This document shows positions 45,805 to 64,000 of a DNA stretch of 64,000 nucleotides, in pieces. This DNA comes from Paracoccaceae bacterium. Lineage in GTDB: Bacteria > Pseudomonadota > Alphaproteobacteria > Rhodobacterales > Rhodobacteraceae. The notes under the pieces are model-generated. The model saw only the letters and a list, made by a program, of their open reading frames with translations. It was not told the origin of the DNA and made no database searches. The translations under genes and the position numbers were made by a program. Position 1 is the stretch's first letter. Each line of letters starts with the position of its first letter. The stretch spans positions 2,521,983 to 2,585,982 of the forward strand of contig OZ244783.1 of the NCBI GenBank assembly GCA_965219635.1. The letters run 5' to 3'.

Positions 45805-45839
45805 TCTTGCAACCAAAGGTAAAGGGAGAGGAACCCAAG

Positions 45840-47105: not shown

Positions 47106-47126
47106 CCCACCGGGCCCGATCAAAGC

Positions 47127-47155
47127 GCATGCCCGCCTGAACCGGGCGGGCATGC
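47127..47155 (+). other. GC-rich intra-operon hairpin (11-bp perfect stem, 7-nt loop) just after the SBP gene
   Basis: GCATGCCCGCC-tgaaccg-GGCGGGCATGC, 22 nt after the SBP stop, with no U-tract. Likely an mRNA-stabilising or attenuating structure that separates SBP expression from permease expression. Confidence 0.5.
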
Positions 47156-47341
47156 TGGAAGGGGGATGGCAGACCGGACAGCATAACCGGCCGGTTGCTG
47201 CTGCGAGACTGCCGGCTCGAGGACGGTAGCCACCGGCAACGGGATGGAACCAGGCCTCAGGCCGGGCCGACTGGACGGCACAGTGCCCTCTCGCAGATTC
47301 CCCCTCCAATGGCCGCATGATACACGCGGCGAGGGAGGCAA

Positions 47342-48427
47342 ATGGCAAGAGCTACCCGGCTTGAGCGGCGGCAAAACCTGACAGGCTGGCTGATGGCGGC
47401 GCCTGCGGTATTGCTGGTGTGCTTCTTTCTTGTCGCGCCGTTTCTCCTGGCATTCGCCTTTTCGTTCACCAATCAGAGGCTGTTCTCACCCAATCCTACC
47501 GAATTCGTAGGCCTTGAGAATTTCAAGCGCATGCTCGGGGTCTACACCTTGACGCTGGATGCCGAGCGCGACGACGACGGCAATCTGATCCTCGACGAAA
47601 ACGGCGAGTTGACCTACCCGCGGTTGCGCAACTTCACCAGAAACAACCCCGAATACCCGTCCCTTAACCGGACCCGGGAGTGGATGCACTTCAACCTGGA
47701 TGGTGAAAGGCGCCTCTATGTGTTGGCGCGCGACGTCATCTTCATGAAGGCTTTCGTCAACACGGTGTTGTTCGTGGCAATTGTGGCTCCGGTCCAGTCG
47801 GTATTGGCACTTTGCCTCGCGTTGCTGATCAACCAGCCTTGCCGCGGCATCAATCTGTTTCGTACGATATATTTCATGCCGGTCGTCATCTCGATGGTCG
47901 TCGTATCGATGCTCTGGCGTTTCATCTATGACGGTCAGAACGGGTTGCTGAATACCTTGCTTGGTTTCTTCAGCGCCGGTCTTATGCAGCCGGTCGACTG
48001 GCTTGGCCAGACATCCACTGCCCTGGGGTCAATCATCGCCATGTCGGTCTGGCAGGGCGTTGGATTCTTCATGGTGATCTGGCTTGCCGGCCTGCAGACG
48101 ATACCCGTCAGCCTCTACGAAGCATCTCGTATCGAAGGCGCAACCCGTTGGCAGAATTTCCGCTACATCACCTGGCCCGGCCTTCGCAACACTGCGGTCC
48201 TGGTCATGGTGATCATAACCATGCAGGCCTTCACTCTGTACCCGCAGGTGGCGATCATGACCAACGGAGGACCGCTGGACTCGACGCAGTCGCTTGTCTT
48301 CCAAATGGTGCAGAGAGGATATGGCAAGCAGGACATCGCCGCAGGCTCGTCCATATCGGTCTTCCTGTTCTTGTTCGTCCTGACAATCTCATTGATCCAG
48401 CGATATGTTTCGCGGGAGCGCGACTGA
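47342..48427 (+). CDS. Carbohydrate ABC transporter permease (MalF/UgpA-like, with an enlarged periplasmic loop)
   Basis: 361 aa. The EAA-type loop YEASRIEGATRWQNFRYITWPGL, plus a long hydrophilic insertion after TM1. Confidence 0.85.
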   Translation: MARATRLERRQNLTGWLMAAPAVLLVCFFLVAPFLLAFAFSFTNQRLFSPNPTEFVGLENFKRMLGVYTLTLDAERDDDGNLILDENGELTYPRLRNFTRNNPEYPSLNRTREWMHFNLDGERRLYVLARDVIFMKAFVNTVLFVAIVAPVQSVLALCLALLINQPCRGINLFRTIYFMPVVISMVVVSMLWRFIYDGQNGLLNTLLGFFSAGLMQPVDWLGQTSTALGSIIAMSVWQGVGFFMVIWLAGLQTIPVSLYEASRIEGATRWQNFRYITWPGLRNTAVLVMVIITMQAFTLYPQVAIMTNGGPLDSTQSLVFQMVQRGYGKQDIAAGSSISVFLFLFVLTISLIQRYVSRERD

Positions 48428-49302
48428 TGGATGGAATGAAAGCGACCATGGCCAGCCTCATGCTGCGCTACGTTCTGCTTTGCTGGATTGCCCTCGTATT
48501 CCTGTTTCCGATTGTATTCATGATTGTCTCGTCGCTGAAGCCTGACCTTCAGTTGCTCAGGGACAGTTCCTCATTTGCTGCATTCCTGCCTGTAGGCGAC
48601 ATTTCCCTCAACAATTACGCCAGCGCCTTCGAACGGGCGCCCATCCTGCGCTTCATCGGCAACTCGATATTCATCACTGCCGTGACCATGACCCTGTCAC
48701 TGTTCCTGTGTTCGCTGGCTGCATTCAGTTTCGTTTTCCTGACCTGGCGCGGACGAACCGTGGTGATGTCTGTGATACTAGCAACCTACATCGTTCCGTT
48801 CGAAGCGATCGCCATTCCGTTGCTTCTGATCGTCAACGAATTGCCCTGGCTGGGGTTTGACGGGTTCAGATGGGGTTGGCTGAACTCCTACCAGGTTCAG
48901 ATCATCCCCTGGATTGCTGATGCGCTGACGATCTTCCTGTTCGTCCAGTATTTCAAGGATCTGCCGCGCGAGCTGGTCGAGGCTGCGCGCGTGGATGGCG
49001 CGAAATGGTTCCAGATTTACCGCCGCGTGATCATTCCCCTATCCGGACCGATCTTTGCAACAGCAGCGATCCTGAAGTTCCTGATGATGTACAACAACCA
49101 GTTCATCTGGCCGGTCATGGTCGTGCAGCAGGAAGAACTGAGGCCCATCATGGTTGGGTTGTTGTACTTCTTTCAGCTGAATGTCGCCTGGGGGGAAGTG
49201 ATGGCCTACCTTTCGATCATCACAATACCCGTACTGGCCTTCTATCTGAGTCTGCAACGCGCCTTCATCGCGTCGGTAGCAAACACTGGAATCAAGGGAT
49301 AA
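48427..49302 (+). CDS. Carbohydrate ABC transporter permease (MalG/UgpE-like)
   Basis: Track ORF trimmed to ATG 48427 (ATGA overlap with the upstream stop): MDGMKATMASLMLRYVLLCWIALVFLFP...; EAARVDGAKWFQIYRRVIIPL loop; 291 aa. Confidence 0.85.
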   Translation: MDGMKATMASLMLRYVLLCWIALVFLFPIVFMIVSSLKPDLQLLRDSSSFAAFLPVGDISLNNYASAFERAPILRFIGNSIFITAVTMTLSLFLCSLAAFSFVFLTWRGRTVVMSVILATYIVPFEAIAIPLLLIVNELPWLGFDGFRWGWLNSYQVQIIPWIADALTIFLFVQYFKDLPRELVEAARVDGAKWFQIYRRVIIPLSGPIFATAAILKFLMMYNNQFIWPVMVVQQEELRPIMVGLLYFFQLNVAWGEVMAYLSIITIPVLAFYLSLQRAFIASVANTGIKG

Positions 49303-49308
49303 TCGAAG

Positions 49309-50304
49309 ATGGGCGAGGTCAAATTCGAAGGGGTGACCAAGTCCTTCGGGACGGTGCAGGTAGTCCCAAAACTCGACCTGAAAATCAAGGACGGCTCGTT
49401 TTCGGTGCTTGTTGGCCCCTCTGGCTGCGGCAAGTCAACGCTGTTGCGCATCGTATCGGGCCTGGAGACCGCAACATCCGGAAAGGTCTTTATCGGCGAT
49501 ACCGACGTCACCGACAGGGAGCCATCAGAGCGATCGATTGCAATGGTCTTTCAGTCCTACGCACTCTATCCACACATGACAGTAGCGGAGAATATCGGCT
49601 TCGGACTCATGCTGGCCAGGAGGCCAAAGGCTGAGATTGAGGAAGCCGTCAGGCAGGCTGCAGGCATCTTGCGGCTGGAACAGTTGCTCGACCGCAAACC
49701 GAAGGCCCTGTCAGGCGGCCAGCGGCAGCGGGTTGCCATCGGACGCGCAATCGTGAGGAAGCCCAAGGTCTTTCTGTTTGATGAACCCCTGTCAAACCTT
49801 GATGCGGCACTGCGCGCCGAAATGCGGGTTGAACTCTCAGAACTGCATGCGCGGATCGGAGCAACGATGATCTATGTGACACATGATCAGGTCGAGGCAA
49901 TGACGATGGCCGATGACATCATCAGCCTCAACGAGGGCAGGATTGAACAGCAGGGCCCGCCGATGGCGCTGTATCAGCAGCCACTCACGCCATTCGTTGC
50001 GGGCTTTATCGGCTCACCGAAGATGAACCTGAAAGAGGGCAAGCTGGCGCAGCAGCACAATTGCGAAGTTTACGGCATCCGCCCGGAGCACATCGAGTTT
50101 TCGGATGCGGAAGATGCTTGGGCGGTCCGGGTCAAACTGGTGGAGACACTGGGAGCCGAGTCCATCATCTATCTGCGATCCGAGGAATTCGGGGACCTTA
50201 CCATGCGTACCGACGGCTTGGTGACTCTTGAGGCAGGCGCCGAACTGAAGGTCAAGCCGAAGGCCGGGATGGAACACTGCTTCAAGGACGGACGCCGTAT
50301 CTGA
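49309..50304 (+). CDS. Carbohydrate ABC transporter ATP-binding protein (MalK/UgpC-like)
   Basis: 331 aa. GPSGCGKST, LSGGQRQRVAIGRA, FLFDEPLSNLD, and a C-terminal regulatory/TOBE-like domain. Confidence 0.88.
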   Translation: MGEVKFEGVTKSFGTVQVVPKLDLKIKDGSFSVLVGPSGCGKSTLLRIVSGLETATSGKVFIGDTDVTDREPSERSIAMVFQSYALYPHMTVAENIGFGLMLARRPKAEIEEAVRQAAGILRLEQLLDRKPKALSGGQRQRVAIGRAIVRKPKVFLFDEPLSNLDAALRAEMRVELSELHARIGATMIYVTHDQVEAMTMADDIISLNEGRIEQQGPPMALYQQPLTPFVAGFIGSPKMNLKEGKLAQQHNCEVYGIRPEHIEFSDAEDAWAVRVKLVETLGAESIIYLRSEEFGDLTMRTDGLVTLEAGAELKVKPKAGMEHCFKDGRRI

Positions 50305-50708: not shown

Positions 50709-53700
50709 TCAAAAGTCCCAATGCACCCCAACGCCAATACGGGTATCAGGGTCGACGGACTCAACATGCTCACCTCTAAATGTGGCAGCCAGACCGCCCG
50801 GCAGTTCAAATCCAACCCCTGCCCCATAGAGTGGGACTTCTTCCTCACCTGTCGTGAGCCTAGCGTCCGCAGACAGCGTCAGCAGACCCGACATCATACC
50901 GAAACCGTAGCCAGCTTGCGCCGCCAATGTACCTGGGGTCAGTTGTGAATTGCCGTTTCCTTGCTGGAATATCGTGTCATCGGACAAGACATCCTCTTGC
51001 TGCGTCCCCCATTCCTGGCGAAGCGACATAGACAACCCACGGCCACGAGCTTCTGGCGCAAGCCGCGCACTGATGCTCAACCCCCATTCGCGTTGGCCAT
51101 CTTCCGTGTGGGTTGCCAGCCAATTTCCGCTGGCATCAACGCTAAGCCGGGAGTGAGGCGCGTGCAGCCTAAGCCCGCCACCTACTTCAACTCCGGCGCC
51201 AGTTACTCCATCGCCACCATCCCAACGCAGCGACAGCGAGCCGCGCGGTGAAAGCATCCACCCGGAGTCCGGAAGCGCAACTCCAGCATGTACAGCTTCA
51301 ATGCCTCCAGTTGCCCGCCAGCTTGTTGCGTCGAGATTTCCGATTGCTGATGTCTCCGGCCCCTGGGTCTCCATCCGCGCCATTTCTACTCCAACGGGCA
51401 CCGAGAAAGTCACCAGGCCTTGCCTTGCCACGGCCCAACGGGCCCCCAGCGAAGCTGCCCTGAAGTCCAGGTCGGCAGTTGATACTTCACCATCCGCAGA
51501 ACGGTGCCTTGCCTCACCGCTACCGTACCCGACCACTGCCCGGACTGACCCGGAGCCATTCGGCAGTGTCAATTGCATATACGGCCAAGCAACTGTCAAC
51601 GAGGTGTCGAAACGAGCGTTTCCTGCCATTGTGAGGGAGTCAGTCTCGCCACGGCTCCTTGAAATCGCAACGCCAGCGAGCAGACGCTCACTCGCCCATG
51701 TGTCAAACCCAAGCCAAGCCGACTTTACAGTGCCGTCCAAACTGCCCAGTTCGGTTCTTCCCTGGAAGCGCCGGTAATCGCCCCGGCCCCAAACTGTCCA
51801 GCCTCCGTAATGTTCGCCTGCATCCTCCTCGCTCAGCGAAAGCGTGAAGGCGCTGCCGTCAAGCATCTCTGCATCTTCAATCGAACGGTAATACCCATCC
51901 GACGCCCGGCCTCCAGACCACCAGCCGCCAGTCTCCTGTCCGGGTGTCAAGTTCAAGTTCTTCAACGCTGTTGAGCCGTCGATCTGTCGGCCGCCTAACG
52001 TCAAGGAATTGGTTCCTGGCGTCGAGCCTAAACGCACATCGATGACACTGTTCATGCTTGCAAGCGTCACCCTGGCGACCTCGGATAGCACAACCCTTGC
52101 CGACTGCTTTTCATCTTCCAGCGATGCGGCCTCCACTGTGATGGCAAATGTCAAGCTGACTGCGTCGCCATCCGCATCAGTGGCTGTGTAGGTGTAAGTG
52201 GTTGCCGGCTGCGCAACTGTAGGCGTGCCCGAGAGTTCGCGTGTCCCGGCTTTGAATGCCAATCCTGCTGGCAGATCCGGTGCCAAACTGTAGGTGAACG
52301 GATTGTCGCCGCCTGCGGGCTCCGGCAATGCCTCTGCCTCAACCTCTGTGTTTACCGTGTATGTCTTGTCTTCGATCGATACTCCGGCAAATGACGGCAA
52401 CAGGTCGAGTCTCCCGCTGATCGTTTCGCTTGCAGCATTACCATTTCCTGCTGCATCCACTGCTACATCCGCCGCAACCGAAACGCTGTAGTTTGCCGTC
52501 GGTGTGATCGTCGCCGTCCACACCGTATTCGCCGTTGTCTCTTCGAAGTCGGTTACCGTTGCGCCAGTCAGCGTAATGTCGTCAATCTCAAATCCACTCA
52601 CCACCTTCGAAAAAGTGAAGGTCGCCGTGAATGCTTCACTTGCCGCCTCCGGCACGCCGGATATCTCCACGGTAGGCGGCGTGATATCGTAGATGCCACT
52701 AACCGCCTCCGCAGCCGTGTTGCCATTGCCCGCATCATCTGCGGCGACATACTCTGCAACCGATACACTGAAATTTTCTGTTGGTGTGACCGTTGCAGTC
52801 CACACCCTTCCCGCTGTCGTCTCAGTGAATTCGCTCACTGATCCTCCACTCACCGAAATATCACGGTCAACGAAGCCGTTCACCGTCTCGGAAAAAGTGA
52901 CCGTCACCGTAAACGGTCCATTCGTTGCCACGGGCACACCGGCAATCGTCACGCCTGGCCTTATCGCGTCAAAGGTGCCGCTGACCGCCTCCGCTGCCGT
53001 ATTGCCATTCCCTGCTACATCCGTCGCTGCATTTGCCGCAACCCATACGCTGTAGTTCGCCGTCGGCATTATTGTCGCCGTCCAGGTTGTGCCCGCCCTT
53101 GTCTCGGTGAAGTTGCTGGCGGTAGCCCCGCTCAGTCCGATGTCACCCACTTCAAAGCCATCTATTGCCTCAGAAAAGGCAAAGGTCGCCGTAAACGTAC
53201 CATTCGTCAGTGCCGGCACGCCTGTTATCGTTACCGTCGGTGATGCCGTGTCATAGACGCCGCTCGCCGTTGCCGATGCTGTGTTGCCGTTGCCCGCAGC
53301 ATCCATTGCGGCATCCGCCGCTACCGAAATGCTGTAGTCTGTCGATGGTGTGATCCTGGCTGTCCACACCCTCCCGAATGTGGTCTCCGTGAAGTTGCTC
53401 GCGGTGCCGCCGCTCACCGTGATGTCTCCGGCAACAAAGTCGTTAACCTCTTCAGTGAAGGTGAAGGTTGCAGTAAAGGCTCCGTTCGTCGCGGCCGGAA
53501 CGCCTGAAATCGACACGCCAGGCCTTGCAGTGTCATAAACTCCGCTTGCTGTGGCCGATGCCGTATTGTTATTGCCCGCATCATCCGTCGCAACATTCTC
53601 CGCAACCGAAACGCTGTAGTTCGCTGTCGGCGTGATCTCCGCCGTCCATACCTGTCCCGTCGTCGTCTCCGTGAACCGGCCGGCCGTGCCACCGCTCACC

Positions 53701-56700
53701 GTGATGTCGCCGACAACAAAGTCGTTAACCCTCTCCGTGAATGTGAAGGTCGCCGTAAACGGCCCGTTCGTGGCAGCTGGCACATCTGAAATCGTGACGC
53801 CCGGCCTTGCAGTATCATAAACTCCGCTTGCGGCGGCTGATGCCGTGTTGCGGTTGCCCGCATCATCCGTTGCAACATTCTCCGCAACCGAAACGCTGAA
53901 ATTCCTCGTCGGCGTGATCACCGCCGTCCAAGTCGTGTCCGCCCTTGTCTCCGTGAAGTTGCTCACCGAGCCTCCGTTCACCGAGATGTCGCTGGCAACA
54001 AATCCGTTAACTTTCTCCGTGAAGTTGAAGGTCGCGGTAAAGGCTCCGTTCGTCGCAGCCGGAACACCGGAAATCGTCACGCCAGGCCTATCGATGTCAA
54101 AGACGCCAGTGATCGCCGTCGCAGCTAAGTTGCCATTGCCCGCATCATCCGTTGCAACATTCTCCGCAACCGAAACGCTGAAATTCCTCGTCGGCGTGAT
54201 CACCGCCGTCCATACCCGTCCTGTCGTGGTCTCTCTGAAGTCGCCCGCCGTGCTTCCGCTCACCGAAATATCGCTAACAGCAAAATCGTTCACCTCCTCC
54301 GTAAAGGTGAAGGTCGCCGTAAACGGCCCGTTCGTGGCGGTCGGCACGCCGGAAATCGTGACGCCCGGCCTTTCGGTGTCATACACACCGCTTGCCGTGG
54401 CTGATGCCGTGTTGTTGTTGCCGGCATCATCCGTCGCAACATTCGCCGCTACCGAGACACTGTAGTCTGCTATCGGCGTGATCTGCGCCGTCCATACCTG
54501 TCCCGTCGTCGCCTCCGTGAACTGGCTGGCCGTGCCTCCACTCACCGTGATGTCACCGACAACAAAGTCGTTCACCTTCTCCGTAAAGGTGAAGGTCGCC
54601 GTAAACGGCCCGTTCGTCGTAGCCGGAACGCCGGAAATCGATACGCCTGGCCTTGCAGTGTCATAGACTCCGCTTGCCGTGGCTGATGCGGTGTTGCTGT
54701 TGCCGGCATCATCCGTCGCGACATTCTCCCCAACCGAAACGCTGAAATTCCTCGTCGGCGTGATCACCGCCGTCCAGGTCGTGTCCGCCCTTGTCTCCGT
54801 GAAGTTGCTCACCGAGCCTCCGTTCACCGAGATGTCGCTGGCAACAAATCCGTTAACTTCCTCCGTGAAGGTGAAGGTCGCGGTAAAGGCTCCGTTCGTC
54901 GCAGCCGGAACACCGGAAATCGTTACTCCTGGCCTTGCAGTGTCATAGACTCCGCTGACCGCTGTTGCTGCTGTGTTGCCATTGCCGGCATCATCCGTCG
55001 CAGCATTCGCCGCTACCGAAACGCTGAAATTCCTCGTCGGCGTGATCTCGGCCGTCCATACCCGTCCCGTCGTCGTCTCCTTGAAATCGCCCGCCGTGCC
55101 ACCGCTCACCGTGATGCCACGCACAACAAAGCCGTTCACTTTCTCCGTAAAGGTGAATGTCGCCGTAAACGGCCCGTTCGTCGCTGCCGGAACGCCCGAA
55201 ATCGTCACGCTAGGCCTACCGGTGTCATAGACGCCAGTGACCGCAGCAGCAGCTGTGTTGCCATTGCCCGCATCATCCGTTGCTACATTCTGCGCAACCG
55301 AAACGCTGTAGTTCGCTGTCGGCGTGATTTCCGCCGTCCATACCGTTCCCGTCGTTGTCTCCGTGAACCGGCCCGCCGTGCCTCCATTCACCGTGATGTC
55401 GCCGAGAACAAAGCCGTTCACCTTCTCCGTAAAGGTGAAGGTCGCCGTAAACGGTCCGTTCGTCGCAGCCGGAACACCCGAAATCGTCACGCCTGGCCTC
55501 GCAGTGTCATACACGCCGCTTGCCGTGGCTGATGCCGTGTTGCTGTTGCTCGCATCATCCGTCGCAACATTCTCCGCAACCGAAACGCTGTAATTCGCTG
55601 TCGGGGTGATCCTGGCCGTCCATACCGTTCCAGCCGTCACAACCGCGAAGTTGCTCACAGAAGCCCCGTTCACCGTGATGTCGCTGGAAACAAAGCCGTT
55701 CACCTTCTCCGTAAAGGTGAAGGTCACCGTAAAGGCCCCGTTCGTCGTAGCCGGAACGCCGGAAATCGACACCCTTGGCCTATCAGTGTCATACACTCCA
55801 GTGACCGCCGCCGCCGCAGTGTTGCCATTGCCCGCAGCATCTTCCGCAACATCCGCCGCAACCGATACACTGTAGTTCGCTGTCGGCGTGATTTCTGCCG
55901 TCCATACTCTTCCCGTCGTCGCCTCCGTGAAGTCGCCCGCCGTGCCTCCATCCACCGTGATGTCGCCGATAACAAAGCCGTTCACCTTTTCCGTAAAGGT
56001 AAAGGTCGCCGTAAACGGACCGTTCGTCGCTGCCGGCACGCCGGAAATCGTCACGCCTGGCCTTGCAGTGTCATACACGCCGCTTGCCGTGGCTGATGCC
56101 GTGTTGCTGTTGCCCGCATCATCCGTCGCAACATTCTCCGCAACCGAAACGCTGTAATTCGCCGTCGGTGTGATCCTGGCCGTCCATACCGTTCCAGCCG
56201 TCACAACCGCGAAGTTGCTCACAGAACCCCCGTTCACCGTGATGTCGCTGGAAACAAAGCCGTTCATCTTCTCCGTGAAGGTAAAGGTCGCCGTAAAGGC
56301 CCCGTTCGTCGTAGCCGGAACACCGGAAATCGTCACGCCTGGCCTACCGGTGTCATAGACGCCAGTGATCGCCGCCGCCGCAGTGTTGCCATTGCCCGCA
56401 GCATCTTCCGCAACATCCGCCGCAACCGATACACTGTAGTTCGTTGGGGGATTACCTGTGCCGCTCGGCGTAATTTCCGCAGTCCAGACAGTTCCCGCCG
56501 CCGCATTGCCATCCACCGCGAAGTTGCCCGCCGTGCCGCCGCCAACCGTGATGTCGCCAACCTCGAACCCTGTCACAGCCTCCGAAAAGGTAAAGGTCGC
56601 CGTGAACGCACCGTTCGCCGCAGCCGGAACGCCCGTGATGGTCACCGTCGGTGATGCCGTATCATAGACGCCACTTGACGTCGCCGATGCCGTGTTGCCA

Positions 56701-59700
56701 TTGCCCGCAGCATCTTCCGCAACACCCGCCGCAACCGAAACAGTATAGTCAGCCGTCGGCGTAATTTCCGCAGTCCAGACAGTTCCGGCCGCCGCATTGC
56801 CATCCACCGCGAAGTTGCCCGCCGTGCCGCCGCCAACCGTGATGTCGCCAACCTCGAACCCTGTCACAGCCTCCGAAAAGGTAAAGGTCGCCGTGAAGGC
56901 CACGTTCGTCACAGCCGGAACGCCGGAAATCGTCACGCCTGGCCTACCGGTGTCATAGACGCCACTTGACGTCGCCGATGCCGTGTTGCCATTGCCCGCA
57001 GCATCTTCCGCAACACCCGCCGCAACCGAAACAGTATAGTCAGCCGTCGGCGTGATTTCCGCAGTCCAGACAGTTCCAGCCTCCGCGTTGGCATCCACCG
57101 CGAAGTTGCCCGCCGTGCCGCCGCCAACCGTGATGTCGCCAACCTCAAACCCTGTCACCGCCTCTGAAAACGTAAAGGTCGCCGTGAACGCACCGTTCGC
57201 CGCCGCTGGGACACCCGTGATCGTCACCGTCGGCGCCACCGTTTCATAGACGCCTGTGACCGCCGTCGCAGCTGTGTTGCCATTGCCAGCGTCATCCGTT
57301 GCAACATTCTCCGCAACCGACACACTGTAGTTCGTTGGCGGATCTCCGGTGCCGCTCGGCGTAATCTCCGCCGTCCAGACAGTTCCGGCCGCCGCATTGC
57401 CATCCACCGCGAAGTTGCCCGCCGTGCCGCCGCCAACCGTGATGTCGCCAACCTCGAACCCTGTCACAGCCTCCGTGAAGGTAATGGTCGCGGTGAAGGC
57501 CCCATTCGTCGCAGCCGGAACGCCGGAAATCGTCACGCCTGGCCTACCGGTGTCATAGACGCCACTTGACGTCGCCGATGCCGTGTTGCCATTGCCCGCA
57601 GCATCTTCCGCAACACCCGCCGCAACCGACACGCTGTAGTCAGCCGTCGGCGTGATCTCCGCCGTCCAGACAGTTCCCGACGCCGCATTGCCATCCACCG
57701 CGAAGTTGCCCGCCGTGCCGCCGCCAACCGTGATGTCGCCAACCTCAAACCCTGTCATAGCCTCCGAAAAGGTAAAGGTCGCCGTGAACGCTCCATTCGC
57801 CGCCGCCGGAACGCCCGTGATGGTCACCGTCGGGGATGCCGTGTCAAAGACGCCACTTGACGTCGCCGATGCCGTGTTGCCATTACCCGCAGCATCTTCC
57901 GCAACATCCGCCGCAACTGAAACAGTATAGTCCGCTGTAGGTGTGATCTCCGCCGTCCAGACAGTTCCGGCTTCCGCATTGCCATCGACCGCGAAGTTGC
58001 CCGCCGTGCCACCGCCAACCGTGATGTCGCCAACCTCGAAGCCGGTTACCGCCTCCGAGAAGGTAAAGGTCGCCGTGAAGGCGCCGTTCGCTGCCGCTGG
58101 AACGCCCGTAATGGTCACCGTCGGGGATGCCGTGTCAAAGACGCCACTTGACGTCGCCGATGCCGTGTTGCCGTTGCCCGCAGCATCTTCCGCAACATCC
58201 GCCGCAACAGAAACAGTATAGTCCGCTGTCGGCGTGATTTCCGCACTCCAGGCCGTGCCCGCCGTCACAACCGCGAAGTTGCCCGCCGTGCCGCCGCCAA
58301 CCGTGATGTCGCCAACCTCGAAGCCGGTCACCGCCTCTGAAAACGTAAAGGTCGCCGTGAACACTCCATTCGCTGCCGCTGGAACGCCCGTGATCGTCAC
58401 CGTCGGGGATGCCGTGTCAAAGACGCCACTTGACGTCGCCGATGCCGTGTTGCCGTTGCCCGCAGCATCTTCCGCAACATCCGCCGCAACAGAAACAGTA
58501 TAGTCCGCTGTCGGCGTGATTTCCGCACTCCAGGCCGTGCCCGCCGTCACAACCGCGAAGTTGCCCGCCGTGCCGCCGCCAACCGTGATGTCGCCAACCT
58601 CGAAGCCGGTCACCGCCTCTGAAAACGTAAAGGTCGCCGTGAACACTCCATTCGCTGCCGCTGGAACGCCCGTGATCGTCACCGTCGGGGATGCCGTGTC
58701 AAAGACGCCACTTGACGTCGCCGATGCCGTGTTGCCGTTGCCGGCGGCATCTTCCGCAACATCCGTTGCGACCGACACGCTGTAGTCAGCCGTCGGCGTG
58801 ATCTCCGCCGTCCAGACAGTTCCGGCCGCCGCATTGTCATCCACCGCGAAGTTGCCCGCCGTGCCACCGCCAACCGTGATGTCGCCAACCTCGAAGCCGG
58901 TCACCGCCTCTGAAAACGTAAAGGTCGCCGTGAACACTCCATTCGCTGCCGCTGGAACGCCCGTGATGGTCACTGTCGGGGATGCCGTGTCAAAGACGCC
59001 ACTTGACGTCGCCGATGCCGTGTTGCCGTTGCCGGCGGCATCTTCAGCAACATCCGCCGCAACCGACACGCTGTAGTCAGCCGTCGGCGTGATCTCCGCA
59101 CTCCAGGCCGTGCCCGCCGTCACAACCGCGAAGTTGCCCGCCGTGCCGCCGCCAACCGTGATGTCGCCAACCTCAAAGCCGGTCACCGCCTCCGAAAACG
59201 TAAAGGTCGCGGTGAACGCTCCATTCGCCGCCGCCGGAACGCCCGTGATCGTCACCGTCGGTGATGCTGTGTCAAAGACGCCGCTCGCGTCTGTTGCCGC
59301 CGTGTTGCCGTTGCCCGCAGCATCTTCTGCAACATCCGCCGCAACCGACACGCTGTAGTCAGCCGTCGGCGTGATCTCAGCACTCCAGGCCGTGCCCGCC
59401 GTCACAACCGCGAAGTTGCCCGCAGTGCCTCCACTCACCGTGATGTCGCCAACCTCGAAGCCGGTCACCGCCTCCGAGAAGGTAAAGGTCGCCGTGAACG
59501 CGCCGTTCGTTGCGGCCGGAACGCCCGTGATCGTCACCGTCGGCGCCACCGTGTCATAGACGCCACTCTCCGTCGCCGATGCCGTGTTGCTGTTGCCCGT
59601 CGCATCCGCCGCAACATCGGCAGCCACCAAAACGCTGTAATTCGTTGGTGGATCGCCGTCGCCATCCGGAGTGATCAATGCCGTCCATACCGTTCCAGCC

Positions 59701-62700
59701 GTCACTACCGAGAGGTTGCCCGCAGTGCCGCCGCTCACCGTAATGTCGCCGATCTGGAAACCGGTCACGGTCTCCGAAAAAGTAAAGGTTGCCGTAAACG
59801 GTGCGTTGGTAGCATCGGGTACATCGGAAATCGTCACACTCGGCACAACATCAAACGTTCCGGTGATCGTGGTCGCTGCCGTATTACCGTTGCCTGCCGC
59901 ATCCTCGGCAACATTCGCCGCTACCGCCACGGTATAATCTGAAGGCGGATCTCCTGTACCGCTTGGAGTGATCTTGGCCGTCCACACAGTGCCAGGAGTT
60001 GCCTCCGTGAATTCACTCGCCGTTGCTCCAGTCAGAGTGATCTCGCCAACCTCAAATCCGGTCACAACCTCCGAAAAGGTAAAGGTCGCTGTGAATTCAG
60101 TATTCGCTGTCGCAAGTACGCCGGTAATCGTCACGCCAGGTTTCTGCGTGTCATACACGCCGCTCGCCGACGCCGCCGTACTGCCGTTCCCCGCTGCATC
60201 CGTTGCAGCATCCGCCGTTACCGACACGCTGTAGTTCGAAGGCGGATCGCCCGTGCCAGACGGTGTGATCGTTGCCGTCCACTCCGTTCCCGCCGACACC
60301 AGGGTGAAGTTGCCCGCAGACCCTCCACTCACCGAAATATCACCTGCCTCGAAACCGGTCACAGCCTCCGAGAATTCAAAGGTCGCCGTGAAAGGCAATG
60401 TGTTTGTCGCAGTTGGCACACCCTTGATCGTGACCGTCGGTGCCGTTGCGTCATAGTTGCCACTGACCGTTGTCGCGGCCGTGTTGCCGTTGCCCGCGGC
60501 ATCCGTTGCAACATCTGCAGCAACCGAAACGGTATAGTCCCCGCTTGGTGTGATCTCGACAGTCCAGACCGTCCCAGCCGTCGCCTCCGTGTCCGCCTCG
60601 AACTTGTCAGAAGCTGCATTGACCAAACCGATGTCACCCGCCTCGAAACCCATCACTGGCTCCGTGAATGTGAAGGTCGCCGTAAACGCTCCGTTCGTCA
60701 GCGTTGGCACACCGGAAATCGAAACGTCCGGTTTCGTCGCGTCATAGACACCAGTCGTCGAAGTGGCTGCCGTGTTGCCGTTGCCCGCGGCATCCGTCGC
60801 AATATCCGCAGCAACCGATACGGTATAGGCTCCGGTCGGTGTAATCTCGGCAGTCCAGACAGTTCCCGCCGTCGCCTCTGTGTCCTCCTCGAAGTCGTCC
60901 GACGTCGCATTGATCAGCCCAATGTCATCCTTCACGAAACCGGTCACCGGCTCCGTAAAGGTGAAGGTCGCGGTAAATGGGCCATTCGTTATAGCCGGCA
61001 CACCGGAAACCGTTACATCCGGTTTCGCTATGTCATAGTCGCCAGTCGCCGAAGTGGCCGCCGTGTTGCTGTTGCCAGCCGCATCCGTGGCAACGTCTGC
61101 TGCAACCGATACCGTGTAGTCTCCGCTCGGTGTGATCTCCGCCGTCCACACCGTTCCCGTCGTCTCTTCAGTGTCCTCCGCAAAATCGTCCGATGTGGCA
61201 TTCACCAGGCCAATGTCATCGTTCACGAAACCGGTCACCGGCTCCGTAAAGGTGAAGGTCGCGGTAAATGGGCCATTCGTTATAGCCGGCACGCCGGAAA
61301 TCGTCACATCCGGTTTCGCTATGTCATAGTCGCCAGTCGCCGAAGTGGCCGCCGTGTTGTTGTTGCCAGCCGCATCCGTGGCAACGTCTGCTGCAACCGA
61401 TACCGTGTAGTCTCCGCTCGGTGTGATCTCCGCCGTCCACACCGTTCCCGTCGTCTCTTCAGTGTCCTCCGCAAAATCGTCCGATGTGGCATTCACCAGG
61501 CCAATGTCATCGTTCACGAAACCAGTCACTGGCTCTGTGAAGGTAAAGGTCGCCGTAAACGGCCCATTTGTGACCGCTGGAACACCCGTAATCGTCACAT
61601 CGGGTTTCGTCGTATCATAGACGCCTGTCGCCGAAGTGGCCGCCGTGTTGCCATTGCCCGCGGCATCCGTGGCAACATCTGCTGCAACCGATACGGTATA
61701 GTCCCCGCTCGGTGTGATCTCCGCCGTCCAGACAGTTCCCGCAGTCGCTTCCGTGTCCTCCTCGAAGTCGTCCGATGTGGCATTCACCAGGCCGATGTCA
61801 TCCTTCACGAAACCCGTCACTGGCTCCGTGAAGGTAAAGGTCGCCGTAAACGGCCCATTCGTGACCGCTGGAGCACCCGTGATCGTCACATCCGGTTTCG
61901 TCGTGTCGAAGTCGCCTGTCGCCGAAGTGGCCGCCGTGTTGCCGTTGCCAGCCGCATCCGTGGCAACGCCTGACGCAACCGATACGGTATAATCTCCGCT
62001 CGGTGAAATCTTCGCTGTCCACACCGTTTCCGCCGTCGGGTCCTGGGTTTCCCGGAACTCGTCCGCCGTCGCATTGGTCAAGCCGATGTCACTCTCCTCA
62101 AAACCCGTTACCGGTTCGTCAAAGGTGAAGGTCGCCATAAACGGCCCGTTCGTTGTGGCAGGCACACCGGATATGGTTATGCTGGGAGCAACCGTATCGT
62201 AAGTGCCATTGGCATCCGCGGCTGTGTTGCCGTTACCAGTTGAATCCGTCGCAACACCCGCCGCAACCGATAAAGCATAGGCACCGGCCGGCGTGATCTC
62301 CGCCGTCCACACCGTTCCCGCCGTAGCATCCGTGTCTTCCTTGAAATCGTCCAATGTCGCATTGGTCAAGCCGATGTCACCGACCTCGAAACCCGTTACC
62401 GGTTCCGAGAAGGTGAACGTCGCCGTAAACGGCCCATTCGCCGCCGACGGCACGCCGGTAATCGTCAAAACAGGCGGCGGATCATGGATGCCACTCTCCA
62501 CACTTGAAGCCTCGTTGCCAACACCGTCCGCGTTCACCGCCACATTCGCCGCAACAGACAAACTGTAATCCAGAGACGGCGGCAAACCAGTCGGCGTAAT
62601 CGTTGCTGTCCAAACGGTTCCGGGCGTCGTCTCGGTGAAGTCGCCAAGTGTTGCTCCGCTCACCGTGATGTCGCCTTGCACAAATCCAGTGACGGCCTCA

Positions 62701-64000
62701 GAGAAGGTGAAAGTCGCCGTAAACGCCACTTTCGTAGTCGCCGGGACTCCCGTGATCGCCACCGTCAAAGGCGCTTTCGGCGTGGCTGTCGTAGTTGCTG
62801 CCTCGCCGTCGCCAGCGCTGTTGATTGCGCGGACGGCAAAGGTGTAGTCGACACGGTTGCTCAGGCCCTCCGCCTTGTAGGAGGTCGCTGTGGAATCAAG
62901 GTCAGTCCAAGTGTCGGTTGAACCGAATGGCAGATCTCTTGTGCGCTTCGAACGAACCTGAACCTTGCTGATAACGCTTGCGTTTGTCGGCAAGTCCCAA
63001 CTCAGATCCGCCTCGCCATCACCGCCGGTGGCGCTCAAATTCGTAGGCGCGCCGGGAACCGCAAGCACAGGCGAGGCCGTCACCTCGTCTGATGCCTCCC
63101 CGTTGCCGGAGGCATTCACCGCACGGATTTTGAATCCATAGGTGGTGCCGTTGGTCAAACCGGTAACCGCGTGAGTTGTGGAGCTTGCACCGCTGCCGGC
63201 GATTTCCGTCCAGTTGCCGAATTGGCCATCACCTTCCTTCTGTTGAATCCAGTATCTGGTGATGTTGGGATCTCCTGGGTCGTCCCAACTCAACGCAAGG
63301 TGAGTGTCTCCAACACTCTCTACTGCAAGTCCGGCCGGTTTTGCTGGAACACCGGTCGGTGTTGCTGATGATGTTGAAGAGCCCGTGCCGTCACCAAGTC
63401 CGCTCACCGCTCGCACCTGGAACACATATGATTGTCCGTTGATCAAACCGGTGACGGTATGGCCAGTGGTGCTGGCATCGCTGCCCGTTATGGCTGTCCA
63501 CAAGCCGCCATCGCCACTGTTGAAAACCGACTCATGCGACCCCTGTTTGTAACGCACATGGTAACCGGTAACGGCTGTGTCTTCGGTAGCATCCCAGGTC
63601 AGAGACACCCCGCCTGAGGAGCCGGTGTGCGTAGCCAATAGGCCGGTCGGAGCATCCGGCACCGTCGGAGCTGGCGGGTTTGGATGCCTTGTCGAGAAAA
63701 TGGCCTTTTGGCCGCCGAGTGTGAATTCGAGATGAAAGTCGTCATCGTTCAACGTCTGCTTCAAGGTACCGTTGAACGTGGCTCTTTTGCCTTCAATCGA
63801 GTAGATGCCGTTTTCGGTGTCTACGTTATCATCTCGTAACCCAAAATTTAAGCGATTAGAATGTGCAACAAAGGACAGATTTGTGCTGTATCCTTGCAGA
63901 CTAGGACGACTATGTCCGTCGTAGGCTTCAACCTCGCTAAAAACCAAAGGAGCACCTTGATAATAAGTCCACGGGCCCCTCTCCATGAGGCCGTACCTGT
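50709..64000 (-). CDS. Giant autotransporter-type adhesin, 5'-partial: head domain + 3 FN3 + 36 Ig-like repeats + He_PIG-like module + C-terminal beta-barrel
   Basis: Uninterrupted ORF of 4,425 codons from ATG 63986. The frame stays open to the window edge, no signal peptide is present, and the paralogue has about 140 more N-terminal residues, so the true start is probably beyond 64000. The C-terminal ~365 aa (about 50712-51806) starts at the GGWTVWGRGDYRRFQG strand and ends GVGVHWDF. Confidence 0.85.
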   Translation of the reverse strand, partial: RYGLMERGPWTYYQGAPLVFSEVEAYDGHSRPSLQGYSTNLSFVAHSNRLNFGLRDDNVDTENGIYSIEGKRATFNGTLKQTLNDDDFHLEFTLGGQKAIFSTRHPNPPAPTVPDAPTGLLATHTGSSGGVSLTWDATEDTAVTGYHVRYKQGSHESVFNSGDGGLWTAITGSDASTTGHTVTGLINGQSYVFQVRAVSGLGDGTGSSTSSATPTGVPAKPAGLAVESVGDTHLALSWDDPGDPNITRYWIQQKEGDGQFGNWTEIAGSGASSTTHAVTGLTNGTTYGFKIRAVNASGNGEASDEVTASPVLAVPGAPTNLSATGGDGEADLSWDLPTNASVISKVQVRSKRTRDLPFGSTDTWTDLDSTATSYKAEGLSNRVDYTFAVRAINSAGDGEAATTTATPKAPLTVAITGVPATTKVAFTATFTFSEAVTGFVQGDITVSGATLGDFTETTPGTVWTATITPTGLPPSLDYSLSVAANVAVNADGVGNEASSVESGIHDPPPVLTITGVPSAANGPFTATFTFSEPVTGFEVGDIGLTNATLDDFKEDTDATAGTVWTAEITPAGAYALSVAAGVATDSTGNGNTAADANGTYDTVAPSITISGVPATTNGPFMATFTFDEPVTGFEESDIGLTNATADEFRETQDPTAETVWTAKISPSGDYTVSVASGVATDAAGNGNTAATSATGDFDTTKPDVTITGAPAVTNGPFTATFTFTEPVTGFVKDDIGLVNATSDDFEEDTEATAGTVWTAEITPSGDYTVSVAADVATDAAGNGNTAATSATGVYDTTKPDVTITGVPAVTNGPFTATFTFTEPVTGFVNDDIGLVNATSDDFAEDTEETTGTVWTAEITPSGDYTVSVAADVATDAAGNNNTAATSATGDYDIAKPDVTISGVPAITNGPFTATFTFTEPVTGFVNDDIGLVNATSDDFAEDTEETTGTVWTAEITPSGDYTVSVAADVATDAAGNSNTAATSATGDYDIAKPDVTVSGVPAITNGPFTATFTFTEPVTGFVKDDIGLINATSDDFEEDTEATAGTVWTAEITPTGAYTVSVAADIATDAAGNGNTAATSTTGVYDATKPDVSISGVPTLTNGAFTATFTFTEPVMGFEAGDIGLVNAASDKFEADTEATAGTVWTVEITPSGDYTVSVAADVATDAAGNGNTAATTVSGNYDATAPTVTIKGVPTATNTLPFTATFEFSEAVTGFEAGDISVSGGSAGNFTLVSAGTEWTATITPSGTGDPPSNYSVSVTADAATDAAGNGSTAASASGVYDTQKPGVTITGVLATANTEFTATFTFSEVVTGFEVGEITLTGATASEFTEATPGTVWTAKITPSGTGDPPSDYTVAVAANVAEDAAGNGNTAATTITGTFDVVPSVTISDVPDATNAPFTATFTFSETVTGFQIGDITVSGGTAGNLSVVTAGTVWTALITPDGDGDPPTNYSVLVAADVAADATGNSNTASATESGVYDTVAPTVTITGVPAATNGAFTATFTFSEAVTGFEVGDITVSGGTAGNFAVVTAGTAWSAEITPTADYSVSVAADVAEDAAGNGNTAATDASGVFDTASPTVTITGVPAAANGAFTATFTFSEAVTGFEVGDITVGGGTAGNFAVVTAGTAWSAEITPTADYSVSVAADVAEDAAGNGNTASATSSGVFDTASPTVTITGVPAAANGVFTATFTFSEAVTGFEVGDITVGGGTAGNFAVDDNAAAGTVWTAEITPTADYSVSVATDVAEDAAGNGNTASATSSGVFDTASPTVTITGVPAAANGVFTATFTFSEAVTGFEVGDITVGGGTAGNFAVVTAGTAWSAEITPTADYTVSVAADVAEDAAGNGNTASATSSGVFDTASPTVTITGVPAAANGVFTATFTFSEAVTGFEVGDITVGGGTAGNFAVVTAGTAWSAEITPTADYTVSVAADVAEDAAGNGNTASATSSGVFDTASPTVTITGVPAAANGAFTATFTFSEAVTGFEVGDITVGGGTAGNFAVDGNAEAGTVWTAEITPTADYTVSVAADVAEDAAGNGNTASATSSGVFDTASPTVTITGVPAAANGAFTATFTFSEAMTGFEVGDITVGGGTAGNFAVDGNAASGTVWTAEITPTADYSVSVAAGVAEDAAGNGNTASATSSGVYDTGRPGVTISGVPAATNGAFTATITFTEAVTGFEVGDITVGGGTAGNFAVDGNAAAGTVWTAEITPSGTGDPPTNYSVSVAENVATDDAGNGNTAATAVTGVYETVAPTVTITGVPAAANGAFTATFTFSEAVTGFEVGDITVGGGTAGNFAVDANAEAGTVWTAEITPTADYTVSVAAGVAEDAAGNGNTASATSSGVYDTGRPGVTISGVPAVTNVAFTATFTFSEAVTGFEVGDITVGGGTAGNFAVDGNAAAGTVWTAEITPTADYTVSVAAGVAEDAAGNGNTASATSSGVYDTASPTVTITGVPAAANGAFTATFTFSEAVTGFEVGDITVGGGTAGNFAVDGNAAAGTVWTAEITPSGTGNPPTNYSVSVAADVAEDAAGNGNTAAAAITGVYDTGRPGVTISGVPATTNGAFTATFTFTEKMNGFVSSDITVNGGSVSNFAVVTAGTVWTARITPTANYSVSVAENVATDDAGNSNTASATASGVYDTARPGVTISGVPAATNGPFTATFTFTEKVNGFVIGDITVDGGTAGDFTEATTGRVWTAEITPTANYSVSVAADVAEDAAGNGNTAAAAVTGVYDTDRPRVSISGVPATTNGAFTVTFTFTEKVNGFVSSDITVNGASVSNFAVVTAGTVWTARITPTANYSVSVAENVATDDASNSNTASATASGVYDTARPGVTISGVPAATNGPFTATFTFTEKVNGFVLGDITVNGGTAGRFTETTTGTVWTAEITPTANYSVSVAQNVATDDAGNGNTAAAAVTGVYDTGRPSVTISGVPAATNGPFTATFTFTEKVNGFVVRGITVSGGTAGDFKETTTGRVWTAEITPTRNFSVSVAANAATDDAGNGNTAATAVSGVYDTARPGVTISGVPAATNGAFTATFTFTEEVNGFVASDISVNGGSVSNFTETRADTTWTAVITPTRNFSVSVGENVATDDAGNSNTASATASGVYDTARPGVSISGVPATTNGPFTATFTFTEKVNDFVVGDITVSGGTASQFTEATTGQVWTAQITPIADYSVSVAANVATDDAGNNNTASATASGVYDTERPGVTISGVPTATNGPFTATFTFTEEVNDFAVSDISVSGSTAGDFRETTTGRVWTAVITPTRNFSVSVAENVATDDAGNGNLAATAITGVFDIDRPGVTISGVPAATNGAFTATFNFTEKVNGFVASDISVNGGSVSNFTETRADTTWTAVITPTRNFSVSVAENVATDDAGNRNTASAAASGVYDTARPGVTISDVPAATNGPFTATFTFTERVNDFVVGDITVSGGTAGRFTETTTGQVWTAEITPTANYSVSVAENVATDDAGNNNTASATASGVYDTARPGVSISGVPAATNGAFTATFTFTEEVNDFVAGDITVSGGTASNFTETTFGRVWTARITPSTDYSISVAADAAMDAAGNGNTASATASGVYDTASPTVTITGVPALTNGTFTATFAFSEAIDGFEVGDIGLSGATASNFTETRAGTTWTATIMPTANYSVWVAANAATDVAGNGNTAAEAVSGTFDAIRPGVTIAGVPVATNGPFTVTVTFSETVNGFVDRDISVSGGSVSEFTETTAGRVWTATVTPTENFSVSVAEYVAADDAGNGNTAAEAVSGIYDITPPTVEISGVPEAASEAFTATFTFSKVVSGFEIDDITLTGATVTDFEETTANTVWTATITPTANYSVSVAADVAVDAAGNGNAASETISGRLDLLPSFAGVSIEDKTYTVNTEVEAEALPEPAGGDNPFTYSLAPDLPAGLAFKAGTRELSGTPTVAQPATTYTYTATDADGDAVSLTFAITVEAASLEDEKQSARVVLSEVARVTLASMNSVIDVRLGSTPGTNSLTLGGRQIDGSTALKNLNLTPGQETGGWWSGGRASDGYYRSIEDAEMLDGSAFTLSLSEEDAGEHYGGWTVWGRGDYRRFQGRTELGSLDGTVKSAWLGFDTWASERLLAGVAISRSRGETDSLTMAGNARFDTSLTVAWPYMQLTLPNGSGSVRAVVGYGSGEARHRSADGEVSTADLDFRAASLGARWAVARQGLVTFSVPVGVEMARMETQGPETSAIGNLDATSWRATGGIEAVHAGVALPDSGWMLSPRGSLSLRWDGGDGVTGAGVEVGGGLRLHAPHSRLSVDASGNWLATHTEDGQREWGLSISARLAPEARGRGLSMSLRQEWGTQQEDVLSDDTIFQQGNGNSQLTPGTLAAQAGYGFGMMSGLLTLSADARLTTGEEEVPLYGAGVGFELPGGLAATFRGEHVESVDPDTRIGVGVHWDF
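52395..62771 (-). repeat. Coding tandem array: 36 Ig-like modules of 93-103 aa (279-309 bp period)
   Basis: Counted in the translation. Every unit carries (V/I)(T/S)I(T/S)GVP...FTATFTFSE.V.GF...DI.V.G......WTA.ITP...Y.VSV....A.D.AGN.N. 405 aa + 3,459 aa + 561 aa = 4,425 aa. Confidence 0.9.

Follow-up and report, generated by a model that had tools for sequence, protein, structure and literature searches.

A giant protein of Ig-like and fibronectin type III repeats ending in a predicted, autotransporter-like outer-membrane β-barrel in a Paracoccaceae bacterium

Introduction

How does a protein of several thousand residues, built like beads on a string from Ig-like and fibronectin type III (FN3) domains, reach the cell surface when it ends in what looks like an outer-membrane β-barrel? 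Models of autotransporter secretion rest on 12-strand barrels and β-helical passengers, and EstA is a non-β-helical example among the classical autotransporters (PF03797). The published autotransporter passenger types 1-3 do not include a bead-string passenger (PMC9289746). The question is raised by a minus-strand reading frame at the edge of a 64,000-nucleotide stretch of contig OZ244783.1 from a Paracoccaceae bacterium; the whole stretch that was analysed is called the window here. An earlier note on this DNA had described the protein as a classical type Va translocator carrying a passenger of FN3 and Ig-like modules. We analysed the frame, its repeats, its C-terminal domain and its relatives.

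Results

The giant reading frame and its assembly

The minus-strand frame was read from 63998 to 50712 as 4,429 codons without a stop (13.3 kb), followed by a stop codon at 50709-50711, and the uninterrupted frame from the window edge to 50709 that had been described earlier is thus borne out. The list of open reading frames gives 63986 as its start because this is the first ATG there; the frame is nonetheless open to the edge. On the source contig, ctg120226 (1.40 Mb; ENA ERZ26695579), the predicted product of the gene (about 883,878-901,046) is 5,722 aa long, and therefore about 1,293 aa lie upstream, beyond the window. No signal peptide was detected at the first in-window residues, the true N-terminus being outside the window, and when window aa 1-420 served as a protein query for the missing N-terminus, only unrelated fn3 proteins of less than 740 aa were returned. 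The passenger is acidic (pI 4.05), and no cysteine occurs in the 4,429 aa. The following features were assigned.

50709-63998, minus strand: giant open reading frame, the C-terminal 4,429 codons and stop of the 5,722-aa gene, with the N-terminus beyond the window
63663-63998, minus strand: fragment of the head module (window aa 1-112 of a module of ~170 aa), without a Pfam match
62775-63662, minus strand: three FN3 domains (PF00041, three stretches, E=1.6e-38, 131 bits)
52392-62765, minus strand: 36 tandem Big_12 (PF19078) Ig-like repeats, units of 94-103 aa, counted by motif
52134-52367, minus strand: He_PIG putative Ig domain (PF05345, E=3.7e-13, 50 bits), the bead nearest the membrane
52026-52121, minus strand: predicted 32-residue α-helix (AF2, pLDDT >90), residues 11-42 of the C-terminal 480 aa
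51801-52025, minus strand: segment of ~75 aa from the helix to the first barrel strand, placed by the AF2 model and the family alignment
50712-51800, minus strand: predicted C-terminal outer-membrane β-barrel domain, ~363 aa, with 18 AF2-predicted strands

The 3' neighbour of the gene is an ABC sugar-uptake operon, and a terminator and promoter scan of the intergenic region between them found neither. No dedicated secretion genes flank the giant gene within the window. Recent horizontal acquisition was considered and set aside, as the composition shows no sign of it (GC of 0.599 in the gene and 0.579 in the rest of the window). The RpoA of the organism, an uncultured alphaproteobacterium, is closest to that of Rhodobacterales/Paracoccaceae. 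Judged from its sequence, the frame is a real gene, and its product would be a surface protein exposed outside the cell.

The window was 100% identical to the fetched part of ctg120226 (window 39309-60304). Two other low-coverage assemblies agreed with it at 99.96-99.99%, with a break in each at 53890, within the array. One contig only is seen to span the array (coverage label 7.78x). The length of the frame and the number of repeats could in principle be wrong if the tandem array had been collapsed or expanded in assembly; the single spanning contig, the two breaks at 53890 and the complete identity of repeat units 15 and 16 would speak for this. Against such an artefact, the repeats are mostly diverged from each other, the 13.3 kb contain no stop, and in relatives from many independent genomes the passenger exceeds 3,000 aa, with family representatives reaching 5,819 aa; the 1.40-Mb size and the name style of ctg120226 also suggest a long-read assembly. 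We consider the artefact very unlikely.

The bead array

The Pfam matches of Big_12, fn3 and He_PIG were all above the gathering score. The Big_12 profile was applied to two samples of three repeats each, with E values of 5e-43 and 3.5e-47 (146-159 bits), and tandem repeat analysis with TRF gave periods of 282 nt (22.6 copies) and 291 nt (6.9 copies) in the array. The mean DNA identity among the Big_12 repeats was 70%, and units 15 and 16 (58122-58685) were the sole identical pair. Pfam searches for fn3, He_PIG and the Big families, which the earlier note had proposed, thus matched all three, the Big family being Big_12. The domain order given there, namely a head fragment, three FN3, 36 Ig-like modules, He_PIG, a linker and an aromatic-ended C-terminal barrel, agrees with the Pfam, motif and model results, and the passenger is, as had been stated, not β-helical. 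Its coordinates held within a few bases except for the upper end of He_PIG, where the Pfam match reaches 52367 instead of 52322. The head module resembles the N-terminal module of a paralogue in the window (see below) and of 18 family ORFs (17 distinct loci), and a scan of genome contigs with the head fragment as query found no relative.

Sequence of the C-terminal domain

The protein terminates in GVGVHWDF, and thus has an aromatic C-terminal β-signal. The motifs of the barrel domain are a conserved WGRGD in the first strand, R-x-DGGDG-x-TG-x-G-x-E, and the terminal HWDF. When the C-terminal 480 aa were searched against Pfam, the sole match was OMP_b-brl (E=1.2e-6), over the last 174 aa; PF03797 gave no match in the C-terminal domain at E<=0.1, and NCBIfam gave none on the 480 aa. 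Searches of PDB sequences by phmmer and then by profile hmmsearch returned nothing relevant for the domain, and phmmer of the most PF03797-like homologue against PDB returned just a weak OmpX match. The assignment as a classical type Va translocator is therefore not supported in the form in which it was given, since neither PF03797 nor NCBIfam nor the PDB sequences gave a direct match. Among 33 homologues, on the other hand, 10 matched PF03797 (best E=1.3e-15), always at profile positions 1 to ~207 of 255 and in the N-terminal ~200 aa of the domain. These matches relate the barrel family to autotransporter barrels, by a transitive link that runs only through the homologues. Past the end of the alignment ~165 residues remain in the domain, as against ~50 profile positions, and the domain, at ~363 aa, exceeds the 255-position profile by ~110 aa.

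POTRA and Omp85 families were absent at E<=0.1 on the C-terminal 480 aa and from the 25 families listed for the 33 homologues, and a type Vb or Vd system (TpsB or PlpD-like, with POTRA and a 16-strand Omp85-type barrel) was rejected on this ground. Giant arrays of Ig repeats are typical both of type I-secreted (T1SS) RTX/Bap-like adhesins and of inverse (type Ve) autotransporters (PMC9289746 and established knowledge), and the protein could be assigned to one of these classes from its passenger. However, a motif scan of the giant protein found no GGxGxD, and its C-terminus is a predicted barrel with an aromatic end and not a T1SS signal, by which the T1SS adhesin was rejected; the inverse autotransporter was rejected by the domain order, in which the Ig array precedes the barrel (the last ~363 aa) instead of following an N-terminal one. 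We regard either assignment as extremely improbable.

Predicted structure of the C-terminal domain

The AF2 model of the domain (pLDDT 81, pTM 0.74; 80-98 over most of the barrel) contained a helix at residues 11-42 and 18 long strands. The model of a divergent homologue, P0020, had the same topology, with the equivalent helix and 18 long strands; the two models are not independent, because both were built on one shared alignment of 32-33 sequences. In the family alignment, hydrophobicity alternates in all 18 predicted strands. The barrel is thus predicted to be larger than the 12-strand autotransporter barrels, with a strand number of 18 according to the models, whereas a 12-strand barrel with a central helix had been expected in the earlier note. 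The 32-residue helix is a candidate for a pore-spanning linker helix. Unlike in classical autotransporters, it is placed ~75 residues ahead of the first barrel strand, and the segment between them, which comprises a small hairpin, a disordered stretch, a short helix and a conserved LLxGSAFxLxL strand, is a possible plug in the model.

A Foldseek search with the model of the window domain gave weak and generic barrel matches only. Hbp (3aeh), BrkA (3qq2), EspP and EstA were included, but the TM score against solved autotransporter barrels was 0.32 when normalised by the query and 0.5-0.6 when normalised by the target, and the similarity was no better than that to 22-strand TonB-dependent receptors. 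One explanation is that the domain is an ordinary but divergent 12-strand type Va barrel, whose ~110 additional residues make up long loops or a sheet added to the barrel, and for which AF2 errs in counting 18 strands. The PF03797 matches of the homologues, the four autotransporters among the Foldseek matches, the helix ahead of the barrel and the common alignment behind both models are in accord with this. It is opposed by the residues that follow the end of the PF03797 alignment at ~207, which exceed the remaining profile positions by far, match the transmembrane barrel profile OMP_b-brl and have a membrane-type alternation of hydrophobicity over nine more strands, as well as by the high pLDDT over most of the barrel and by TM scores that stay at 0.5-0.6 to 12-strand barrels even when target-normalised. 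From this balance, we think a 12-strand barrel unlikely.

Paralogues and the family of the barrel domain

Two further loci in the window are related to the giant protein.

21074-23677, plus strand: intact short paralogue of 867 aa, with a signal peptide, a head module, two FN3 domains, a linker and a related barrel
~15224-16037, plus strand: decayed paralogue, in which the last ~270 aa of the barrel are scattered over three reading frames with stops

Across the C-terminal 470 aa, the short paralogue shares 57% identity with the giant protein. The earlier note had counted two paralogous loci; this one is intact, and the other proved to be a frameshifted pseudogene remnant.

Beyond the window, the barrel-domain family comprises 4,492 cluster representatives with sizes of up to 5,819 aa, and the domain was at the C-terminus in all 150 of the representative matches listed. 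The last residue is F, W or Y in 72 of 75 family ORFs, and Sec-type signal peptides are present in most complete family ORFs and in the window paralogue. Nearly all of the 77 family loci are in metagenome-assembled genomes, several of which have sponge-derived bin names (Ca. Porisulfidus, Ca. Poriferihabitaceae), and more than 10 paralogues occur in a single genome. The family is large and, partly by bin name, found mostly in sponge-associated bacterial genomes. Passengers at the 77 loci contain fn3, He_PIG, cadherin, PKD or Calx-beta; examples are He_PIG x13 with fn3 x7, fn3 with cadherin, PKD, and Calx-beta. Neither Pfam nor NCBIfam has a name for the family, the only source annotation found for the giant protein's family was 'hypothetical protein', and no paper describing the architecture was found in the literature on autotransporters, sponge symbionts, FN3/He_PIG/cadherin passengers and 18-stranded barrels. 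The suggestion of an undescribed adhesin family is in line with the absence of a name or a paper, although the protein is not isolated and has thousands of relatives, many of giant size, with passengers of the bead type.

When widely differing passengers are all followed by a conserved helix and a C-terminal barrel, the arrangement is that typical of a translocator joined to its cargo. The alternative is that the barrel is a mere membrane anchor or porin-like module, and that the beads reach the surface by another route or not at all. The generic OMP_b-brl profile as the sole direct Pfam match fits this, as do a barrel of 18 strands far wider than the pore an unfolded chain needs and a ~75-aa segment that could plug it. 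In contrast, the extreme C-terminal position in 150 of the 150 matches listed, the cysteine-free passenger and the absence of dedicated secretion genes beside the giant gene within the window are what a self-translocating protein would have, and a rod of at least 40 beads is implausible inside the periplasm. An anchor alone is, in our judgement, improbable.

Discussion

We favour, with some confidence, the reading of the giant protein as a Sec/BAM-dependent, self-anchored surface fibre, an autotransporter-like variant that would translocate its own passenger, expose it at the surface and serve in adhesion. The protein would be exported by Sec, its own signal peptide presumably lying in the upstream part. 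BAM would then recognise the C-terminal domain through the terminal aromatic β-signal and insert the β-barrel, presumably descended from an autotransporter (type V) β-domain and enlarged to ~363 aa and 18 predicted strands, in the outer membrane. The passenger would be threaded outward from its C-terminus to its N-terminus and stay covalently attached by the long linker helix. Folding in the sequence He_PIG, 36 Big_12 and FN3 may drive and rectify the export; a similar role of sequential folding has been proposed for inverse autotransporters and their Ig arrays. The in-window part alone would form a rod of the order of 150 nm, and the distal FN3 and head modules would be held off the cell and could adhere to host matrix, host cells or other bacteria.

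The giant protein shares with type Va proteins (NalP, EspP, Hbp, BrkA, AIDA-I and EstA) a single polypeptide with an N-terminal passenger and a predicted C-terminal barrel, a predicted helix before the barrel, an aromatic C-terminal β-signal, a first strand of the W-x-R-G type and a cysteine-free passenger, and most of its relatives have signal peptides and some of its homologues PF03797 matches. It differs from them in the lack of a direct PF03797 match, in a domain that has ~110 aa more than the PF03797 profile and, by prediction, 18 strands where theirs has 12, in the ~75 residues between helix and strand 1, and in a modular passenger in which Ig, FN3 and He_PIG beads are strung together, neither a β-helix nor a single enzyme domain. 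With type Ve proteins (intimin, invasin, FdeC and SinH) it would have in common, from its domain content, a barrel-anchored surface rod made up of bacterial Ig-like domains in tandem and, by analogy, sequential domain folding as the likely drive of secretion and an adhesive role. However, its topology is opposite, with the barrel at the C-terminus, it has no LysM or periplasmic domain, its barrel is of another family, and its beads are Big_12 and He_PIG instead of Big_1. The giant T1SS adhesins (SiiE, LapA, MpIBP and BapA) are likewise acidic proteins of several thousand residues, in which dozens of near-identical Ig-like beads serve as an extender with putative ligand-binding modules at the distal end; they differ in having RTX repeats and a T1SS signal, and in retention in a TolC-like channel, where the giant protein has its own predicted barrel as anchor.

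FN3, cadherin and Ig-like domains are enriched in sponge microbiomes and are treated as attachment factors (PMC10947273). The same types occur in the family's sponge-named genome bins, which places the family beside the eukaryote-like repeat proteins of sponge symbionts; the literature consulted reports the enrichment, draws no link to a common C-terminal barrel and gives no route by which the domains arrive at the cell surface. The barrel family could be an export and anchor chassis for many of these proteins. As a tentative extension, possible though we would not lean on it, the C-terminal domain may represent a new type V secretion subtype: an 18-stranded, autotransporter-derived translocator and anchor with a helix-plus-plug linker. 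On this view the domain would provide a shared chassis for the export of eukaryote-like adhesion modules (FN3, cadherin, He_PIG, PKD, Calx-beta and Big_12), and would have spread and expanded, probably horizontally, among sponge symbionts of Alpha- and Gammaproteobacteria, Thermodesulfobacteriota, Nitrospinota and Spirochaetia.

If the barrel is truly enlarged and fused to bead arrays of up to ~5,800 aa, the family would be a test of the models of autotransporter secretion, raising the issues of pore width, of the identity of the plug, and of whether the folding of Ig domains alone pulls out a 40-bead chain. The family is invisible in present annotation, appearing as 'hypothetical protein' with no NCBIfam model, and a profile of the barrel would give a handle for cataloguing the surface adhesins of symbionts. 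A shared C-terminal barrel, in many copies per genome and across phyla, would offer a testable route by which eukaryote-like domains reach the symbiont surface.

The giant open reading frame and its array of beads

Translation of the minus strand from 63998 to 50712 gave 4,429 stop-free codons with the protein terminus ...GVGVHWDF*, and thus both the uninterrupted frame from the window edge to 50709 and the aromatic C-terminus (HWDF) described in the earlier note were found. The ORF list has the gene begin at its first ATG (50709–63986; 4,425 aa), but the frame remains open up to the window edge, and a signal peptide is absent from the first in-window residues. The same gene was called at 5,722 aa on contig ERZ26695579 ctg120226_7.78x_l, and therefore the in-window part is the C-terminal 77% of a larger protein. 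Pfam matched fn3 in three stretches (E=1.6e-38), Big_12 (PF19078; E=5e-43 and 3.5e-47 on two three-repeat samples) and He_PIG (E=3.7e-13), which agrees with the FN3, Ig-like and He_PIG beads read earlier from the sequence, as does the count of 36 units. The in-window protein has no cysteine and a pI of 4.05, and a motif scan of it detected no RTX motif. The parts of the gene referred to below are as follows.

63663–63998, minus strand: head module, internal in the giant protein
52392–62765, minus strand: 36 repeat units of 94–103 aa each, by motif count; TRF periods of 282 nt (22.6 copies) and 291 nt (6.9 copies)
50712–51800, minus strand: strand-rich C-terminal domain (barrel)

The source contig (ENA/NCBI; 1,404,425 bp) was traced via the adjoining ABC-ATPase gene (49309–50304), and the stretch fetched from it was 100% identical to window positions 39309–60304. 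The size and name style of this 1.40-Mb contig suggest, as our inference, a long-read origin. Because the repeat units have diverged (mean pairwise DNA identity, 70%), the array should be resolvable by accurate long reads. Units 15 and 16 (282 nt each; 58122–58685) are the only identical pair, with 100% DNA identity; they reflect a very recent duplication, or else mark the position at which the copy number is most vulnerable to misassembly. Two other low-coverage assemblies, which are independent and from the same strain (L002 and L003), matched the window at 99.96–99.99%. Both stop exactly at 53890, within repeat 31, and indels in one of them split its gene call. The array is therefore seen to be spanned by one contig only, and the exact unit count is provisional. 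The giant Ig-bead ORF is a real feature.

The C-terminal domain

The last 480 aa of the giant protein were used as the query. PF03797, the autotransporter translocator profile, gave no match at E<=0.1, and the sole Pfam match was OMP_b-brl (PF13505; E=1.2e-6, residues 307–480). NCBIfam gave no match to this region, and searches of the PDB sequences with phmmer, with a profile of 33 sequences and with the homologue P0020 as query gave no relevant match. On the other hand, 10 of the 33 homologues matched PF03797 (best E=1.3e-15), in nearly every case at profile positions 1 to about 207 of 255. This match takes up the initial ~200 residues, after which ~165 more remain in the domain, as compared with about 50 positions left in the profile. 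These partial matches indicate, at the level of sequence, that the domain is homologous to autotransporter beta-domains, yet about 110 aa longer than the profile. The PF03797 and OMP_b-brl matches tile the domain as about nine strands followed by about nine more.

AlphaFold2 modelled the domain with a pLDDT of 81 and a pTM of 0.74, most of the barrel having a pLDDT of 90–98. The predicted elements, numbered by residues of the last 480 aa, are listed here.

11–42: 32-residue helix
after this helix: small hairpin
60–91: disordered stretch
between 60–91 and the barrel: short helix and conserved strand LLxGSAFxLxL
118–478: 18 long strands, with a long disordered loop between strands 13 and 14

The 12-strand barrel with a central helix that had been expected was not obtained: the model has 18 strands, preceded in the sequence by the helix; both the strand count and the helix position are predictions. 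The divergent homologue P0020, which has the best PF03797 match, was modelled with the same helix, 18 strands and loop, from an alignment common to both, so that the two models are not independent. In the family alignment, hydrophobic positions alternate in each of the 18 strands, in a way that suggests an extension of the strand 1–8 hairpins well above the membrane. The 75-aa segment before the barrel is a possible plug. Foldseek against PDB detected generic barrel similarity only: TonB-dependent receptors gave TM 0.41–0.44, and the autotransporter barrels Hbp and BrkA gave 0.32 when query-normalised and 0.50–0.61 when target-normalised.

Two motifs are near-invariant across the family (alignments A1 and A2). 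One is WGRGD in strand 1, in which the RGD triplet is probably structural, and the other is R-x-DGGDG-x-TG-x-G-x-E at the strand 9/10 turn, which resembles a Ca-binding motif.

The barrel family

When 1.84 billion cluster representatives were searched exhaustively with phmmer, 4,492 proteins matched with E<=1e-3, of which 3,086 had E<=1e-10 and 219 had E<=1e-30. In 150/150 matches listed, the barrel was the extreme C-terminus, and the proteins were up to 5,819 aa long. A word-indexed search yielded only proteins below ~850 aa and missed the giant protein and its window paralogue; its passenger lengths are therefore biased short. Scanning of GTDB species-representative genomes gave 77 distinct loci, almost all in metagenome-assembled genomes. 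Several of the genome records have sponge-derived names (Ca. Porisulfidus, Ca. Poriferihabitaceae), and the bin prefixes RHO3 and COS4 are presumably from published sponge studies. The taxon labels are Alphaproteobacteria (Rhodobacterales, Rhodospirillales, Paracoccaceae), Gammaproteobacteria (Arenicellales), Thermodesulfobacteriota, Nitrospinota and Spirochaetia. One Alphaproteobacteria bin carries more than 10 loci, and in some bins (loci L016, L026, L027, L009 and L028) two or three barrels lie in tandem within 10 kb.

The family ORFs range from ~530 to >3,800 aa, with seven extending past the 10-kb flank examined. A Sec-type signal peptide is clear in most of the ORFs that are complete, and the C-terminal residue is F, W or Y in 72 of 75. 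The passengers are modular and varied: that of L019 consists of He_PIG x13 and fn3 x7, that of L059 of fn3 x4 and cadherin x3, and others contain PKD, Calx-beta, Big_9, bacterial cadherin-like domains or SWM repeats. "Hypothetical protein" was the sole source name found, and literature searches found no paper describing the family. The family is more widely spread, and its barrel more unusual, than was proposed earlier.

Paralogues, head module and genomic neighbourhood

Of the two paralogous loci reported earlier in the window, one is intact and the other is a frameshifted C-terminal remnant.

21074–23677, plus strand: intact paralogue of 867 aa, between engB and argB
about 15224–16037, plus strand: pseudogene remnant of a third family member, which retains ~270 aa from the C-terminal end of the barrel, in three frames with stops

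The intact paralogue comprises a signal peptide (…ALALGTAVLLVGSPATEA, followed by GTLTFTFTDDG), a ~170-aa head module, two fn3 domains and a barrel 57% identical to that of the giant protein; its ORF-list start at an upstream GTG (20852) is probably wrong. The head module has no Pfam match. It was found (TLTFTFSDDG…) close to the N-terminal end in 18 family ORFs at 17 distinct loci (among L007–L032), directly after the signal peptide in those checked. That of the giant protein lies ~1,350 aa past the called start, and further modules must therefore precede it, upstream of the window.

The neighbours are chromosomal housekeeping genes (yidC, engB, argB, rpoA and those for ribosomal proteins S13, S11 and L17) together with sugar ABC transporters, and the GC content of the giant gene is that of its surroundings. 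The window RpoA shares ~75% identity with named Rhodobacterales/Paracoccaceae sequences. A sugar-utilisation cluster at 43642–50304 faces the 3' end of the giant gene in convergent orientation; it encodes a LacI-type regulator, two permeases, an ABC ATPase and a solute-binding protein, and includes a weak GH32-like match. A GH31 glycosidase is located at 6129–8234.

Secretion type and proposed role

Type Va autotransporters have a PF03797 translocator with a 12-strand barrel, and their passengers are of three types, i.e., a beta-helix, a beta-helix with an enzyme, or an enzyme alone (EstA) (PMC9289746). The classical type Va layout assigned earlier holds for the overall logic of the giant protein. 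However, its barrel is predicted to have 18 strands, its PF03797 link is partial and through homologues only, and its bead passenger is outside the published set of three (PMC9289746). Other secretion types do not fit: the topology is wrong for type Ve, no POTRA was listed for the last 480 aa at E<=0.1 as type Vb/Vd would require, and the in-window protein has no RTX repeats of the kind found in a T1SS adhesin. We conclude that the giant protein is probably a variant of the autotransporter kind with an unusual barrel.

The evidence best fits an autotransporter-like surface fibre that anchors itself. The protein would cross the inner membrane by Sec, and BAM would insert the C-terminal barrel via the aromatic beta-signal. 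The unfolded, cysteine-free passenger would then be exported C-to-N, its beads folding one after another outside the cell, while the linker helix would keep it covalently attached. Each Ig-like domain measures roughly 4 nm, which would give the part within the window, with its 40 beads, a length on the order of 150 nm. On the basis of the domain types and of the sponge-microbiome literature that treats FN3 and cadherin domains (PMC10947273), we infer that the fibre may attach the bacterium to the matrix or the cells of a host.
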